From the NCBI GenBank assembly GCA_944386495.1, contig CALXBE010000010.1, forward strand, positions 2,822-66,821: a stretch of DNA of 64,000 bases, written 5' to 3'. Below, piece after piece: positions 29,352 through 35,089 of this stretch (position 1 is its first letter; the number at the start of each line of letters is the position of its first letter). Origin of the DNA: an uncultured Gemmiger sp. Its GTDB lineage: Bacteria; Bacillota; Clostridia; Oscillospirales; Ruminococcaceae. Below the pieces are notes generated by a model that saw only the letters and a program-made list of their open reading frames with translations, searched no databases and was not told where the DNA came from. The translations under genes and the position numbers were made by a program.

Positions 29352-30749
29352 ATGGCGGCAAAATTAAAAACCATTTATATATGCAGCGACTGCGGGGAAA
29401 CCAGTCCCCGGTGGATGGGGCGTTGCCCCTCCTGCGGCGCCTGGAACACCATGGTGGAGGATGTGGTGGATACTGCACCGGATAAAGGCAAGGGAGCAAA
29501 AGCCCCTCTGACCGGGCAGCGAAAAACTACTCTGACTCCCAGCCGGCTTTCCGAAATCAGTACAGATGAGGAGAGAAGCCGGATCGTCACCGGGATTGGA
29601 GAACTGGACCGTGTTCTGGGCGGTGGCATTGTTCTGGGCAGTGTTGTCCTTTTGGGTGGCGAACCGGGAATTGGCAAGTCTACCGTCTTGCTTCAGCTCT
29701 GCGGGGCCATCAGCCGTGATAGAAATATGCTGTATGTCACAGGTGAGGAGTCTGTCCGGCAGATCAAGCTGAGAGCGGACCGACTGAAGGTACCTCAGCA
29801 GAATATCATGCTGGTGGCAGAGAATGATATAGAAGAAATCTGCGGACTGATTGAGCAGATGAAGCCGGAACTGGTAGTCATTGATTCTATCCAGACCATG
29901 CGGTGCAATGACCTGAACAGTGCCACTGGGACTGTCTCTCAAATCAAAGAGTGTGCAGCCAGGCTGGTGGCTGTCGCAAAAAGCTACGAGATACCGGTAT
30001 TTATTGTGGGCCATGTGAATAAGGAAGGCGCGCTTGCCGGACCTAAAGTCATGGAGCACATTGTAGACACCGTGTTGTATTTTGAGGGAGATAAAACCCT
30101 GCCGTACCGTGTTCTTCGGGCCGCCAAAAACAGATATGGCTCCACCAACGAGATTGGAATGTTTGATATGACCGGAGACGGTCTCAAGGAAATTGAAAAT
30201 CCCAGCCAGCTGCTGCTGGAGGGACGGCCCCTGGGAATCAGCGGGAACTGCGTGGCCTGCACCATGGAGGGGACCCGTCCCATCCTCAGTGAAGTGCAGG
30301 CTTTGGTCGCCAAGAGCGGGCTCCAGGTTCCTCGCCGCACTGCAAGCGGGTTTGATTATAACCGGATGAATCTTCTTTTGGCGGTTTTGGAAAAGCGGGC
30401 CGGGTACCTCTTTGGCAACCAGGATGTTTATCTGAACATTGTGGGCGGATTGCGGCTTGACGAGACAGCTTGTGATCTGGCTGTCTGTGTGGCTTTGGCT
30501 TCCAGCCTGTTGGATTTGCCGGCAGGGGATAAGACGGTAGCCATTGGAGAGGTTGGTCTGGGAGGAGAAATCCGGACAGTTACTCATCTGGAATCCCGGC
30601 TGCGGGAAGCTCAGCGGATCGGATTTGAAAAAGCAATCATTCCTAAACACAGTATGGCGCAGCTTGACCTTAAACAGTTCAAAGGAATGGAGCTGATTGG
30701 GGTCACATACTTGAGAGAGGCTGTGAACGCCATCAAAATCAAGGAATAA
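29352..30749 (+). CDS. radA: DNA repair protein RadA/Sms
   Basis: Zinc finger 'CSDCGETSPRWMGRCPSCGAWNT', Walker A 'GGEPGIGKST', 'KNRYGSTNEIG', and a Lon-like C-terminal domain. Confidence 0.95.
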   Translation: MAAKLKTIYICSDCGETSPRWMGRCPSCGAWNTMVEDVVDTAPDKGKGAKAPLTGQRKTTLTPSRLSEISTDEERSRIVTGIGELDRVLGGGIVLGSVVLLGGEPGIGKSTVLLQLCGAISRDRNMLYVTGEESVRQIKLRADRLKVPQQNIMLVAENDIEEICGLIEQMKPELVVIDSIQTMRCNDLNSATGTVSQIKECAARLVAVAKSYEIPVFIVGHVNKEGALAGPKVMEHIVDTVLYFEGDKTLPYRVLRAAKNRYGSTNEIGMFDMTGDGLKEIENPSQLLLEGRPLGISGNCVACTMEGTRPILSEVQALVAKSGLQVPRRTASGFDYNRMNLLLAVLEKRAGYLFGNQDVYLNIVGGLRLDETACDLAVCVALASSLLDLPAGDKTVAIGEVGLGGEIRTVTHLESRLREAQRIGFEKAIIPKHSMAQLDLKQFKGMELIGVTYLREAVNAIKIKE

Positions 30750-30829: not shown

Positions 30830-30857
30830 TTGACAGATTCCGGGGAAGTACTATAAT
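30830..30857 (+). promoter_or_regulatory. Near-consensus sigma-A promoter directed rightwards
   Basis: TTGACA (30830-30835), 16-nt spacer, TATAAT (30852-30857). Confidence 0.6.
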
Positions 30858-30871
30858 AAAGATATAATCTA

Positions 30872-30884
30872 TTTCGCTAAAGAT
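30872..30884. repeat. Left copy of the 13-bp direct repeat (attL core)
   Basis: TTTCGCTAAAGAT, identical to 33899-33911. Confidence 0.8.
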
Positions 30885-30950
30885 TCACAATTTGGCGAAG
30901 CGTTCTGCTTCGCTAAATTTGTCTTTGGCGACATTGCGGACAGTGAGGAA

Positions 30951-30987
30951 ACCGGCTCCCGGATTACAGGAGCCGGTTCTTTTTATG
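30951..30987 (+). terminator. Rho-independent terminator just inside the element's left end
   Basis: 10-bp stem AACCGGCTCC/GGAGCCGGTT with a 9-nt loop, followed by CTTTTTAT. Confidence 0.7.
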
Positions 30988-31007
30988 CCGGCAGAAAGGG
31001 GACGTTT

Positions 31008-31229
31008 ATGCAAAACTACATGGAGGTAACGGTGCTGAGCACCAGCGCCGAGGTATTCCGGGGACGGGGTGGGGACCCCGACAGGACGATGCACCGATTG
31101 TACATTGCCGGAAGTGATGGGCGTGTGGGCTACCTGTACAGCCAGACCCCCCACGAACCCGGCGCAGTGGTTCGCCTGGGCCTGACGGAGCGGGACGGAA
31201 AGTTGAAACTGCGGGTGCTGAAGGACTGA
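31008..31229 (+). CDS. Hypothetical 73-aa protein of the element
   Basis: ATG lies 7 nt after AAAGGGG. Coding-like composition, with no motif I recognise. Confidence 0.45.
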   Translation: MQNYMEVTVLSTSAEVFRGRGGDPDRTMHRLYIAGSDGRVGYLYSQTPHEPGAVVRLGLTERDGKLKLRVLKD

Positions 31230-31244
31230 GAAAGGGGGGCGACC

Positions 31245-31298
31245 TTGACACTGTGAGAGGGGCTACGCCCTCTCACAGTGTCAAGTGTCAGTGTCAAA
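31245..31298 (+). promoter_or_regulatory. Putative double-strand origin: 17-bp perfect inverted repeat with a 6-nt loop, plus adjacent short direct repeats
   Basis: TTGACACTGTGAGAGGG-gctacg-CCCTCTCACAGTGTCAA (31245-31284) is followed by GTGTCA GTGTCAA, abutting the rep start. The loop contains CTACG. Confidence 0.55.
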
Positions 31299-31967
31299 AT
31301 GGGAAAAATGCGGAACAGGTGGTGCAGTCTGGTCCTATACCCGGAAAGCCAGGCAGAAGCCATCGAAAAGGCCACAACCACCTTCCCCTGCGTGTGGATA
31401 ACCCACGACAAGGATAAGGGGCCGGACGGGGAACTCATGAAGCCCCATGTCCATATCTTGTGTCACTTCGGGAATGCCCGGTACTTCTCCGGGATAGCCA
31501 AAGAGTTGGCGGTCCCGGAGGGGGCGGTCAATCGGGTGGACAACCCGGAAAAGGCGTTTGCCTACCTGACCCACGACAACAACCCGGAAAAGTATCAGTA
31601 CGATAAAGCGGACTTATGTTTCCATGACTTCGCCATGGGGGAAGCGGACCAGGCCGGAGCGGCAGAGGAGGAACAGGTGGTGCAACTGCTGGAAATGCCC
31701 CAGGGCCTCACCAGGAGACAGGCGGCAAGGTGGGCCCTGGAAAATGGGTGCTGGGCGGCATACCGGCGGGGGTACGCAATCTTCCGGGACATCCGGGAGG
31801 AAGAGGCGGCGCTTGGGTCTGCCCGTGCCAGGGCTGAGAGAATCGAAGCCCTAGAACGGGCGGCCCAGTACGAAAAGGAGCACCCGGTTTCTGTTGTGAT
31901 GGGTGGCGCAGTAGGGCGGCTGGTTGCCGCCAGTGAGGGGCAACCCTGGACAGGGCCGGAACACTGA
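31299..31967 (+). CDS. Rolling-circle replication initiator, pMV158 RepB-like (Rep_2, HUH endonuclease)
   Basis: 'LVLYPES', 'ITHDKDK', the HUH motif 'KPHVHIL', the catalytic-Tyr region 'AYLTHD', and 'YQYDKADL'. These follow the order and spacing I recall for pMV158 RepB. Confidence 0.8.
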   Translation: MGKMRNRWCSLVLYPESQAEAIEKATTTFPCVWITHDKDKGPDGELMKPHVHILCHFGNARYFSGIAKELAVPEGAVNRVDNPEKAFAYLTHDNNPEKYQYDKADLCFHDFAMGEADQAGAAEEEQVVQLLEMPQGLTRRQAARWALENGCWAAYRRGYAIFRDIREEEAALGSARARAERIEALERAAQYEKEHPVSVVMGGAVGRLVAASEGQPWTGPEH

Positions 31968-32045
31968 AAAGCCGGGGCCTGTCGCACAATTCCGGCAAGT
32001 TCTGGGAAGGAGTTTACATTTTGTGGAAAGTAAAAGAGGGGCAGA

Positions 32046-32585
32046 ATGGGCCGCAGTAGCTGGGTAAGTGATGATGCTATGGGCCACGTACTGGCGGCAC
32101 TTACGCCGCAGAATCGCCTGGTGATGGAGGTGTGTATCAGCACCGGGCTCCGGGTGGGGGACGTGCTGGCCCTCAAAACAGCGGCCCTCCGGCCCCGGCA
32201 AACCATCCGGGAGCAGAAAACCGGAAAGACCAGGCGGGTCCGGTGGAGAAAGGACCTCTACGAAAGGATGTTGGCGGGGGCCGGGCGGCTGTGGGTGTTT
32301 GAGGGCCGCACCGACTGGAAGAGACACCGCACCCGGCAGGCCGTGTGGAAGGACCTGCGAAGGATTGCCCGGGTATTCCTGCCCGGTGGGAGCATACCCA
32401 GAGGGGCACAGGTCAGCCCGCACAGCGCCCGGAAAATGTACGCCGTGGGGCTCCTCCATCAGACCGGAGACCTGCGGAGGGTCCAGAAGGAACTCAACCA
32501 CGATAGTGAGGCTGTGACATTGCTCTACGCAATGGCGGACCAGATAGGCAGGAAAGGAGGTGGAAAATGTGGGCATATTGGATGA
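32046..32585 (+). CDS. Minimal (179-aa) tyrosine recombinase, catalytic domain only
   Basis: The full R-K-HxxR-H-Y set is present: 'GLRVGDVLAL', 'EQKTGKTRRV', 'PHSARKMYA' and 'LNHDSEAVTLLYA'. There is no room for an N-terminal core-binding domain. Confidence 0.75.
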   Translation: MGRSSWVSDDAMGHVLAALTPQNRLVMEVCISTGLRVGDVLALKTAALRPRQTIREQKTGKTRRVRWRKDLYERMLAGAGRLWVFEGRTDWKRHRTRQAVWKDLRRIARVFLPGGSIPRGAQVSPHSARKMYAVGLLHQTGDLRRVQKELNHDSEAVTLLYAMADQIGRKGGGKCGHIG

Positions 32586-32781
32586 GCTAGATCTGTTGAA
32601 TGTACGCCTGCGACTGGTACGGGCTAAATTGGAGCGTGCCCTTGGAGCTGTCGTTGCCTGGGAAGAGGACTGGCCCAGCACGGAGGCGCTGGATGCACTG
32701 AAACAGGCGAACAAGACCCTCGTGGGGATTGTGTGTCAGGTGGACGAACTGAGGACGGAGGAACGGCTGGGGAGGCGGTGA
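32569..32781 (+). CDS. Hypothetical ~70-aa helical protein (possible directionality factor or regulator)
   Basis: GTG lies 6 nt after AAGGAGGTG and overlaps the recombinase 3' end. Heptad-like 'LDLLNVRLRLVRAKLERAL'. A strong terminator follows. Confidence 0.4.
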   Translation: MGILDELDLLNVRLRLVRAKLERALGAVVAWEEDWPSTEALDALKQANKTLVGIVCQVDELRTEERLGRR

Positions 32782-32801
32782 GCCCCGCTCCCCCTGTTGG
32801 C

Positions 32802-32842
32802 GCCCCCGTATAACAACCAAAGGTTGTTATACGGGGGCTTTT
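32802..32842 (+). terminator. Strong rho-independent terminator ending the element's coding module
   Basis: 17-bp perfect stem GCCCCCGTATAACAACC-aaa-GGTTGTTATACGGGGGC followed by TTTTG. Confidence 0.75.
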
Positions 32843-33800
32843 GCGGCTGTACGGTATAGCGGGCCTGTCGGTGCCTGGGCCCACTGGCCCAGGAGAACAA
32901 GGCAAGAAAGCCCCCCCCCAGCGTACCGCAGTACGCCCGAAAAGCGGAACGCCCCCGCCCCCCTGGGGGGGCGGGGGCTTCCGCTTGGCGGTAGCTGGGG
33001 GGGTATTAAGATAAAGGCCACGAGCCCACAAGCGCCCGGCAAGGCGGGTACCGTGGTACACCCGCCGAGCCGCTGGCGCTGTGAGGCAAGGGCCGAGGGT
33101 GCCGGGCACCGGCGGTGGCGGCCGCCGCAGGACCGGCACCCAACCGACCGACGTTGATACGGCCGGGCACCGGCCGTGCAGGGCGGTCAAGGTGGAGGCC
33201 CCCCAAAGGGGGGCACTACCTTGACTGCCCTGCACGACAGTGCAACCGGCAGACATTCGACCCCCCGGCAAGGCCGGGGGGGAGCGGGGCCGCTTGGCCC
33301 CCAGCGGGCGGCAAACAGAAAGAACAGAATCCGCCCGCTACCTTGTGTGTGTGAGGTCTGGGGCCGCTGGGCCGTCCACGGCCCTTGTGGCCCCAGGACG
33401 AACAGGCACCCAGGGCGGGGCAAGGCGGGAGCCTGACCCCTTGGGGGGGCAGGCTGGGGCCGTCCATGAAGAGATGATGCTGACCAGGCCAGCCGCCGCC
33501 GTAGGGTGGCGGCGGCTGGGCCGCAAAAAGAAAGAGACACCAGCTTCACCGGTGCCTCTTTCTTCAATAGGGGACGTTGCCGCCCCACCATCGGGCCACT
33601 ATCATAATACCACCACCGGCCCAGGCTGTCAACCCCCAATTTTGCACTGCCTACCCGTAGGCGTTACCACCCCACCGGAGGGCCGCCCCCCTCCCACGGG
33701 AGGGGCGGGGGGGTGGGCTCACCCTTCGCACCGCCTACCCGTTGCCCCTGGGCCTGACCTCTGGGCGGGGCCGGTCACCGGGTAGCTTGACCGGCCCCTC
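32843..33800. other. ~1-kb G+C-rich non-coding region made of many nested perfect or near-perfect hairpins (candidate large structured RNA or oversized single-strand origin)
   Basis: No credible ORF; the only ORFs are Pro/Gly/Arg/Ala-rich and overlap on both strands. At least 12 stems of 6-20 bp were found by eye, several enclosed by longer-range pairings. Strand undetermined. Confidence 0.4.
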
Positions 33801-33897
33801 ATGGACTTTTGATGACGTCAACTGGAGATTTGTTTCACAAAGGCTCCCGCCAGTTGACGGGGAGAATTGGAGGTGATACCATAGAGCCATGGGAGCC

Positions 33898-33925
33898 GTT
33901 TCGCTAAAGATAAGTTTAGCGAAAT
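33898..33925. promoter_or_regulatory. 28-bp palindromic recombinase-type site (11-6-11) upstream of the xer-like gene
   Basis: gTTTCGCTAAA-GATAAG-TTTAGCGAAAT. With the left flank restored the arms become perfectly symmetric (ATTTCGCTAAA / TTTAGCGAAAT). Confidence 0.5.
33899..33911. repeat. Right copy of the 13-bp direct repeat (attR core)
   Basis: TTTCGCTAAAGAT, identical to 30872-30884. Confidence 0.8.
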
Positions 33926-34036
33926 AGAGGGAAGGGCAAAAGCAGTAAAAAGGCTTTATTTATAGGCTAAGTCCGCAATAAGGCTTGGAATCATTAAAAA
34001 GCTTGGAACCATTAAATTATCATAAGGGTTTTTATT

Positions 34037-35089
34037 ATGAGTTCTTATTTGAATCAACTTCATCCTGAGCGGCATGATGCTTATCTGGATATTCCCCAGG
34101 ATGCTCAGGAATATCTTCATTATCTGGATTATGTGAAACATCTCTCGCCAAGAACCATTCATGGCTATTACCTGGATCTCAGAACTTTCTTCCGATACCT
34201 TATGATTCATAAAGGCATCGTTTCACAGGATACTCCTTTACAAGAAATCGACCCAAGAACTATAACCATCCAGGATATCAGGGCCGTTCAGAAGTCCGTC
34301 ATTTTTGCTTATCTGCAGTATCTGCAGGCCCATAATAATTCCTTCGCAGCTCGCAGTCGCAAGCTGACAGCACTGCGGGGCTTCTATCATTACCTTCTCA
34401 CCCAGGTAGGACGCATCAAATATGATCCCACCGAGGACATTGATTTAGGCTCTCCCAGAAAGACACTGCCCAGATACCTGACCCTGGAGGAAGCTCAATC
34501 TTTGTTAAATAATACACAAAGTGATTTTGCAGAACGAGATTACTGTATAATAACATTGTTTTTGAATTGCGGGATGCGGCTGGTGGAGCTGTGCGGCATC
34601 AGTATGTCGGATTTCAGAGACGATACCATCCGAATCGTTGGCAAAGGCGGCAAAGAACGGCTGGTTTACCTTAATGATGCCTGTCTGGATGCGCTTCGCC
34701 ATTATCTGCCTGTCCGGAATAAACTGAAGCTGACCGAAAAGGATGCGCTGTTTATCAGCAAACGGACTGGAAAACGGCTTACGCCCAGACGAGTGCAGCA
34801 AATTGTGGAGCGCAGTTTGAAAGCGGCCGGACTGGACGGACGCGGATTTTCCCCACACAAACTGCGGCACACTGCAGCTACGCTTATGTATCAATATGGG
34901 AATGTGGATATGTTGGCACTCAAAGAAATTTTGGGGCACGAGAATGTATCCACCACCCAAATTTACACCCACATCAATACAAAGCAGCTGAAAAATGCGG
35001 TAGCCTCCTCTCCCCTTTCTGGTGTTACTTACCCGCAAAAAAAGCTCCGGGAGGAGCCGGAGCCTGAATCAGAGGAAGAGGATTCCTAA
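34037..35089 (+). CDS. Xer-like site-specific tyrosine recombinase (350 aa, acidic C-terminal tail)
   Basis: N-terminal SAM-like domain 'LSPRTIHGYYLDLRTFFRYL'. Catalytic 'GMRLVELCGI', 'GKGGKERLVYL', 'HKLRHTAAT' and 'LGHENVSTTQIYTH'. Confidence 0.85.
   Translation: MSSYLNQLHPERHDAYLDIPQDAQEYLHYLDYVKHLSPRTIHGYYLDLRTFFRYLMIHKGIVSQDTPLQEIDPRTITIQDIRAVQKSVIFAYLQYLQAHNNSFAARSRKLTALRGFYHYLLTQVGRIKYDPTEDIDLGSPRKTLPRYLTLEEAQSLLNNTQSDFAERDYCIITLFLNCGMRLVELCGISMSDFRDDTIRIVGKGGKERLVYLNDACLDALRHYLPVRNKLKLTEKDALFISKRTGKRLTPRRVQQIVERSLKAAGLDGRGFSPHKLRHTAATLMYQYGNVDMLALKEILGHENVSTTQIYTHINTKQLKNAVASSPLSGVTYPQKKLREEPEPESEEEDS

Follow-up and report, generated by a model that had tools for sequence, protein, structure and literature searches.

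What is the role of a 28-bp palindrome that lies directly upstream of a gene for an Xer-type recombinase, and at which a small mobile element has inserted? This question is posed by a 64,000-nucleotide stretch (hereafter the window, always meant at its full length) from an uncultured Gemmiger sp., which forms part of contig C10 of the assembly G000 (1.89 Mb in 26 contigs, 81% complete). The palindrome occupies positions 33898..33925, and the gene (34037..35089, + strand; xer below) encodes a 350-aa Xer-family tyrosine recombinase, the presumed enzyme acting at the site. From its sequence, conservation and genomic position, we consider it very probable that this bacterium, a member of the Oscillospirales, uses the palindrome as its chromosome-dimer-resolution (dif) site and the adjacent recombinase as the enzyme for it.

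As it now stands, the site (the attR of the inserted element, with no strand assigned) reads GTTTCGCTAAAGATAAGTTTAGCGAAAT and is parsed as GTTTCGCTAAA-GATAAG-TTTAGCGAAAT, with complementary bases at 10/11 arm pairs; its outermost left base, a G, is the only one derived from the element. The left junction (30871-30884, ATTTCGCTAAAGAT) retains the host base, an A, at this position; with that base put back, the empty site becomes ATTTCGCTAAA-GATAAG-TTTAGCGAAAT, whose 11-6-11 symmetry is perfect. This reconstruction is validated by a genome of the same genus (G001; recombinase 82% identical), in which radA, a TTGACA/TATAAT promoter, GTTTCGCTAAA-TGTAAG-TTTAGCGAAAT and xer follow one another uninterrupted. 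Thus the perfect 28-bp symmetry that had been proposed from the letters alone is borne out by the host base at the left junction and by the empty site of G001, and the spacing to the recombinase gene, which had been put at about 110 nt, measures 111 nt from the end of the palindrome to the ATG at 34037. The 13-bp duplication flanking the element is likewise as first described: the repeat, TTTCGCTAAAGAT, consists of arm positions 2-11 (the left arm minus its first base) plus three centre bases, and is present in exactly two + strand copies in the window, the left (30872..30884) marking the crossover identity and the right lying at 33899..33911, with no others in the 1.89-Mb assembly.

Palindromy alone is not rare, as the assembly contains 279 11-6-11 palindromes with at least 10/11 matches, mostly G+C-rich hairpins, 17 of which have AT-rich arms; the significance of the site therefore comes from its conservation. 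Its arms are unique within the assembly, and the site is single-copy in two related genomes, G032 and G268. Orthologs of the 350-aa recombinase were found in 37/41 related genomes, with one best match each (41-82% identity), and named records (Gemmiger, Faecalibacterium, Acutalibacter, Oscillospiraceae, Acutalibacteraceae) place this clade in the Oscillospirales; beyond it there is a sharp step in identity, from at least 39% to at most 35% for the generic XerC/D proteins of other phyla. An 11-6-11 palindrome (at least 9/11 matches) lies 1-273 bp upstream of the xer start in 23/30 related loci (distances being taken from the chosen ATG, or from the start of the match where the scripted ATG was misplaced), and more such sites were found in named Gemmiger, Faecalibacterium, Acutalibacter and Oscillospiraceae records. 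Among control XerC/D loci of other phyla, 0/43 had a comparable 11-6-11 site. Co-conservation of the palindrome with the recombinase gene, which the sequence-only reading had singled out as informative, thus holds across the order, with arms that covary symmetrically.

Orthologous sites were collected at 48 loci, and all 48 have a 6-bp centre and equal arms, with an inner AAA/TTT that is invariant. The arms exist in lineage-specific versions (ATTTCGCTAAA, ATTGCACTAAA, ATTATACAAAA, ACTCAACAAAA, GTTTCACCAAA and ATTGCGTAAAA), in which both arms change together, and the arm sequence follows the host lineage; the centre is free to vary. Complementarity per arm position is seen in 42-48/48 sites, while centre positions 13-16 are complementary in only 8/48, although the percentages for the arms are inflated by the gathering of sites with a palindrome criterion. 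The variety of compensated pair types is unaffected by this mode of collection: arm positions 4, 5, 6 and 8 each use 2-4 complementary pair types and are complementary in 44-47/48 sites.

The sequence-only reading had proposed to ask whether the locus lies at the replication terminus, and we find it at the flip of both GC skew and gene orientation on its own contig, and opposite dnaA in relatives. On the window contig, cumulative GC skew climbs as far as window positions 33-34 kb, beyond which it levels off or drops. Host genes run rightward up to radA (29352..30749, +), the last rightward host gene 5′ of the site, and leftward from 35069, after xer; host gene orientation thus reverses around the site, placing it at the point of convergence. 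The closed genome G032 (2,229,578 bp, dnaA at base 22) has a perfect ATTATACAAAA-TAGATA-TTTTGTATAAT at 1,145,998, inside the 2-kb interval of the skew sign change and between the last rightward gene (end 1,145,967) and the first leftward gene (from 1,146,051). In this genome xer is 8 kb from the site and radA is inverted, so that the site has been parted from the xer promoter and is still at the flip. Together with the closed genome G210 (dnaA at 28, site at 1,447,031 of about 2.7 Mb) and with G268 (dnaA-to-site separation about 1.34 Mb in about 2.7 Mb), this gives three closed or near-closed genomes in which the site lies about 180 degrees from dnaA. The maximum of cumulative skew coincides with xer in G010, and skew is higher to the left than to the right of the site in 10/11 further loci, where gene orientation also converges. 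G-rich and purine-rich words, with a polarity like that of FtsK-orienting polar sequences (KOPS), converge on the site as well; this polarity is inseparable from GC skew and gene orientation, and being confounded with them is not counted as evidence.

Two side observations concern this region. On contig C1 of G032, the left half-site ATTATACAAAA recurs unchanged at 1145311-1145321, 687 bp left of the site, possibly as what remains of a junction from a small earlier insertion. In the assembly G000, three contigs are low in G+C (C10 51.6%, C26 51.7% and C1 53.4%, with the remaining contigs at 55-59%), reflecting either terminus-region composition or imperfect binning of this metagenome-assembled genome.

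The site lies in the leader of xer, and this raises the possibility that the palindrome is not a recombination site and does no more than regulate the xer-like gene, as an autoregulatory operator or a 5′-leader RNA hairpin, its terminus position being inherited synteny. A host promoter-like sequence with all 12/12 consensus bases (TTGACA-16-TATAAT; 30830..30857, +) ends 13 nt upstream of the palindrome in the empty site and reads into xer, and the insertion now separates the two; in many relatives the -35 and -10 boxes are at the same distance from the palindrome. A conserved box, GGGGAG-N-GAAAA, follows 3-4 nt past the right arm in most loci and serves as the ribosome-binding site where the leader is short (its fuller consensus is about T-N-R-GGGGAG-Y-GAAAA, represented in the window by AGAGGGAAGGGCAAAAGC, within 33926-33945). 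This placing between a perfect -35/-10 and a G-rich ribosome-binding box in many lineages is what an operator would be expected to show; read as RNA the site would form an 11-bp hairpin stem (z = -3.8 for its 81-nt context), and some neighbours are conserved, radA and yajC each adjoining the site in 12/76 loci. Such a role alone does not account for G032, where 8 kb separates the motif from xer and the genes converging on it, right at the skew flip, are unrelated ones, nor for the integrative elements (discussed below) that have recombined inside the motif with a defined crossover in at least eight cases; nor does it explain a centre that is always exactly 6 bp in a site that is single-copy and has no T-run after it. 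We therefore regard a purely regulatory palindrome as improbable, and an operator role is in any case compatible with dif function: as the site is found between the xer promoter and the ribosome-binding region in many lineages, its occupancy by the recombinase probably also autoregulates xer.

The G-rich box is kept whether the xer start is 7 or 111 nt away. The site was also considered as a terminator and rejected, as no T-run follows it and the terminator scan does not call it. Within the element, a weak promoter-like match (TTGACG-17-TACCAT, 9/12, with an extended -10 TG; 33854..33882, +) faces outward, toward the site and xer. It lies some 15 nt short of the site, in almost the register of the host promoter that the insertion cut off, and could take the place of that promoter.

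Turning to the recombinase itself, the 350-aa protein matches PF00589 with 133 bits, and its catalytic residues R181, K206, H274, R277, H301 and Y310, a complete R-K-H-R-H/W-Y set, are invariant in 23 orthologs. On curated models it scores 221.5 bits for XerC (cut-off 335), 195.8 for XerD (cut-off 330), 186.9 for archaeal XerA (cut-off 220) and 143.4 for XerS (NF003462, cut-off 267), its orthologs reaching 137-153 bits on the XerS model; as all of these are below cut-off, the protein belongs to no named equivalog. A search of the PDB gave 104.4 and 97.7 bits for XerA, 97.8 for XerD and 66.9 for XerH, of which the model libraries searched contain no model. The best full-length PDB match was chain 9i5v_14 (401 residues; 108 bits over residues 19-325), which is labelled ‘Ribosome-associated translation inhibitor RaiA’, a label that looks wrong for a Xer-like sequence.

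These scores bear on whether the protein acts alone, since its best curated model is XerC (221.5 bits), and it could be a divergent XerC which needs an XerD partner that was missed in an assembly only 81% complete. Such partners do exist in the order: XerD-grade matches (at least 295 bits) are present in 8/41 relatives, and in G032 the second recombinase, next to xer, qualifies as a true XerD (329.9 bits; cut-off 329.6). These genes are found mostly in sister families, in several of which (G032 C1:1155768-1156646; G040 C25:217897-218757; G196, L148 13939-14754; G131, L151 7273-8088; G245, L156 6850-7590) they are convergent with the xer ortholog and about 100 bp to 1 kb away. None was detected in the three genomes of the window's genus, and only 1/24 genomes of its family has one, many of these 24 being at least 96% complete; one relative, G009 (100% complete), has exactly one tyrosine recombinase (PF00589) in total. 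The assembly G000 itself has two PF00589 genes only, xer and the 179-aa gene of the inserted element, with no second full-length one. Furthermore the two arms agree at each of their 11 positions, also where XerD is present, the site being still a perfect palindrome in the XerD-carrying genomes G032, G040 and G036, and this fits a single binding specificity. Thus a two-recombinase dif awaiting an overlooked XerD appears very unlikely here; rather, the 350-aa protein is in our view a divergent Xer, which would serve both arms, XerD having apparently been lost in the window's family.

The single-recombinase arrangement suggested by the sequence-only reading therefore stands for the window's family, and does not extend to the whole order, as sister families keep XerD beside xer. 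Its suggestion that the site belongs to a family distinct from the dif of Bacillus and E. coli agrees with our searches: no Bacillus, Clostridium or E. coli type dif was found in the whole assembly or in 200 kb of the G032 terminus (best matches with 8-9/28 mismatches, chance level), and no XerC/D pair was found elsewhere in the assembly. An FtsK_SpoIIIE gene is present (C2:116642, 222 bits). In G032 a second perfect 11-6-11 palindrome, AATTCCATGTG-TGTTTA-CACATGGAATT, unrelated in sequence to the site at the skew flip, begins 5 nt past the xer stop (C1:1154865-1154892; L011 2462-2489), between xer and a 272-aa gene that is followed by the genuine XerD; a terminator and an XerD site are both conceivable roles for it.

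We propose that each of the two identical 11-bp arms would be bound by one recombinase monomer, that the two dif sites of a chromosome dimer would synapse at the septum, probably after FtsK translocation, and that cleavage at both arm/centre boundaries, 6 bp apart, would give a Holliday junction to be resolved to monomers. The 3-kb rolling-circle element would have entered by site-specific recombination between dif and the element's own dif mimic, which appears to share with dif only the xer-distal arm and three centre bases. Integration would then have regenerated an intact dif on the xer side and left a mis-spaced, 11-9-11 hybrid on the far side. With an intact dif regenerated and the hybrid mis-spaced, the host would still be able to resolve dimers, and the element should escape excision by Xer in its routine work.

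The body of the element (30885..33898, +; 3,027 bp including one copy of the 13-bp repeat) is plasmid-like, of the rolling-circle type, with a G+C content of 62% (61-65%) against about 51% for the contig, and it encodes a RepB-type Rep protein (Rep_OBD, PF01719; 31278..31967, +) and a 179-aa tyrosine recombinase (PF00589; 32046..32585, +) which consists of the catalytic domain only, with a full catalytic set. The possibility that the 179-aa protein is a recent derivative of the host Xer was rejected (BLASTP E = 0.064 over 45 residues); database sources gave no name for the cluster of either recombinase. The far junction, attL (30871..30901, no strand), is the hybrid ATTTCGCTAAA-GATTCACAA-TTTGGCGAAGC, in which the host xer-distal arm and three centre bases are followed by the remainder of the element's centre and a degenerate arm, giving the 11-9-11 spacing.

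In lying inside the host dif by way of a dif-mimic attP, with dif regenerated, the element resembles an integrative mobile element exploiting Xer (IMEX); by encoding its own PF00589 protein it departs from the IMEX definition, which specifies no recombinase. Five same-species contigs from other samples all have the element at the site, with no empty allele, and the predicted attP circle junction had 0 matches in the metagenome_contigs and viral_contigs sets. Relatives (at least 90% identical) of the 179-aa recombinase are found on Logan contigs of 3034, 3048 and 3050 bp, lengths that free circles of the 3,027-bp element would be expected to have once assembled. Dif-like half-sites occur within the element at 30891-30933 of the window (TTTGGCGAAGC-GTTCT-GCTTCGCTAAA, then TTTGGCGACA).

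Integration at this site is recurrent. Homologs of the 179-aa recombinase are present in 16/401 genomes of the order, from 13 genera (that of G000 included) and at least nine families, and in 11/15 of the relatives' loci they lie 100-900 bp from a dif palindrome; xer is also adjacent in eight of these, in seven of which the small-recombinase gene points toward the site and xer. The elements beside the site measure 2.4-3.3 kb. Their far junctions carry a second site, whose xer-distal arm is of the host's arm type and in which either the centre is 9-10 bp or the other arm is degenerate, as in G283, where the far-junction site is ACTCAACAAAA-TAAACTGCCG-TTTTGTTGAGT against a dif of ACTCAACAAAA-TAAAAA-TTTTGTTGAGT. 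For eight elements, including that of the window, the identity between attL and attR amounts to the xer-distal arm plus 2-4 centre bases. In both G000 and G349 the arm at present found in dif has one mismatch contributed by the element, and substituting the arm of host origin makes the palindrome perfect again. Such identities are what a strand exchange at a single boundary between arm and centre would leave behind, and the crossover pattern suggested for the window from the 13-bp duplication recurs in seven further elements from other genera.

That the element brings its own PF00589 recombinase with a full catalytic set suggests another reading, namely that the site is a conserved attachment site at which recombinases of the elements act (those of the 179-aa family and others), with the Xer-like protein of the host having another function and dimer resolution taking place elsewhere or by a non-Xer route. 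Enzymes of about 200 aa, among them the FimB/FimE-type invertases, are known to function with no large N-terminal domain, and extra copies of half-sites inside elements would also suit this reading. The small recombinase is found in only 16/401 genomes, however, whereas the site and xer are nearly universal, and for purifying selection to keep the palindrome perfect where no element is present, the host must itself make use of it. As the arm sequence also tracks the host lineage, and no other dif or Xer pair was found, we think a site that merely serves the elements scarcely plausible.

A further proposal is that the 2.5-3.3 kb elements next to the site in 13 genera are a new class of dif-targeting replicons, in which the 179-aa recombinase teams with the host Xer on a mis-spaced mimic with a 9-10 bp centre. 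In such a partnership, the 179-aa protein could supply or activate the second strand exchange, or could bypass FtsK control; its part would then resemble that of XafT, the activation factor of the TLC satellite phage, but played by a recombinase. We put this forward as a possibility only, and a doubtful one. Tandem or nested small-recombinase elements, or their remnants, are seen beside dif in G196 (C11; L148 8886-9209 and 12007-12543), G131 (L151 9716-9787, 9871-10284 and 13291-13398) and G194 (L154 11310 and 17899), with repeated junction sequences such as an identical 35-nt flank at two places in G194; these arrays resemble the tandem IMEX arrays of Vibrio. Dif-like half or whole sites also lie within elements, 25-110 bp from a junction (G283, L149 10481-10508; G245, L156 9594-9622; for example GCTCAACAAAA-CGGCTA-TTTTGTTGGCG), and may be putative accessory binding sites.

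Several considerations weigh against the identification of the palindrome as a dif site served by a single Xer. Binding and catalysis are inferred from sequence. The perfect symmetry of the site offers no obvious cue for ordered strand exchange besides the centre. An operator or hairpin role would also explain the covariation, given that the site is in the xer leader and folds as a hairpin, and the gathering of sites by their palindromy has, as mentioned above, inflated the arm complementarity. The genomes compared are kin, with radA and yajC partly conserved, so that part of the terminus position may be inherited synteny, although the G032 site, being at the flip despite its distance from xer, argues against synteny as the full explanation. 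The presence of XerD-grade genes in sister families, adjoining xer in those examined, means that the system is not a single-recombinase one order-wide, and the incompleteness of the window's assembly leaves the absence of XerD from this genome unproven. Lastly, the low G+C of contig C10 is set against about 56-58% in most contigs.

Among the closest known systems is XerS/difSL of Streptococcus and Lactococcus, in which one Xer of about 350 aa adjoins its own terminus site in a Firmicute host (PMC1914069, PMC2965235, PMC5357621); A/T-rich arms ending in AAA/TTT and the presence of FtsK are further likenesses. However, the score of our protein on the XerS model (143 bits, cut-off 267) is below its XerC, XerD and XerA scores, and difSL is a 31-bp site with an 11-bp centre and unequal arms, in contrast to the 6-bp centre and identical 11-bp arms found here. 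XerH/difH of Helicobacter and Campylobacter likewise links a single recombinase to its site, with a geometry of about 11-6-10/11 (PMC3325230, PMC5241119) and inner arm ends that are GAAAA/TTTTC-like, as are those of our site. In this case the differences are a weaker similarity to XerH (66.9 bits) than to XerA/XerD (98-104 bits), another phylum, and the imperfect arms of difH, whereas the arms described here are usually perfect.

The classical XerC/XerD-dif system (CodV/RipX-dif in Bacillus subtilis) has the same 28-bp, 11-6-11 geometry and terminus position; XerC is the best curated model for our protein, and some sister families keep XerD beside the gene. The window's system differs from it in scoring below both cut-offs, in having no XerD in the genus and in only 1/24 genomes of the family, in its identical arms, and in having at least 8/28 mismatches to the dif consensus genome-wide. 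The XerL/dif system of the Legionellales offers a parallel of another kind, as there too a lineage-specific, single-recombinase dif was exposed by a terminus-integrating, dif-mimic element, LME-1, and the downstream dif is modified or retained after integration, as we find here (PMC9765430). The host phylum and site sequence differ from ours, and in our case the site abuts the gene and the elements carry a small recombinase.

The attP of CTX-phi type IMEX imitates one arm together with just the neighbouring bases of the centre, and integration leaves the host with a functional dif (PMC5357621). The element of the window similarly lies in dif with homology on one side of the centre, and with such one-sided homology a single pair of strand exchanges would be expected. 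Unlike the classical IMEX, which have no recombinase, it has its own 179-aa tyrosine recombinase and a RepB-type rolling-circle Rep. Literature queries, some of which were too loose or too strict, returned no description of a dif site or of chromosome-dimer resolution for the Oscillospirales, and those supplementary tables of the dif survey of Kono et al. 2011 that were searched contain no genome of this order (PMC3025954).

Faecalibacterium, Gemmiger, Ruminococcus-like and Acutalibacter lineages, all members of the Oscillospirales, rank with the most numerous bacteria of the human gut. For these organisms a 28-bp site with a linked enzyme would mark the replication terminus in fragmented metagenome assemblies, and would explain a recurrent integration hotspot for small plasmids and phages. 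For genetic tools in bacteria that resist engineering, the pair may supply a natural landing pad together with its recombinase. The perfect symmetry of the dif also poses the mechanistic question of what sets the order of strand exchange, and the lineages with and without an adjacent XerD would form a natural series in which to follow the collapse of two-recombinase systems to one.

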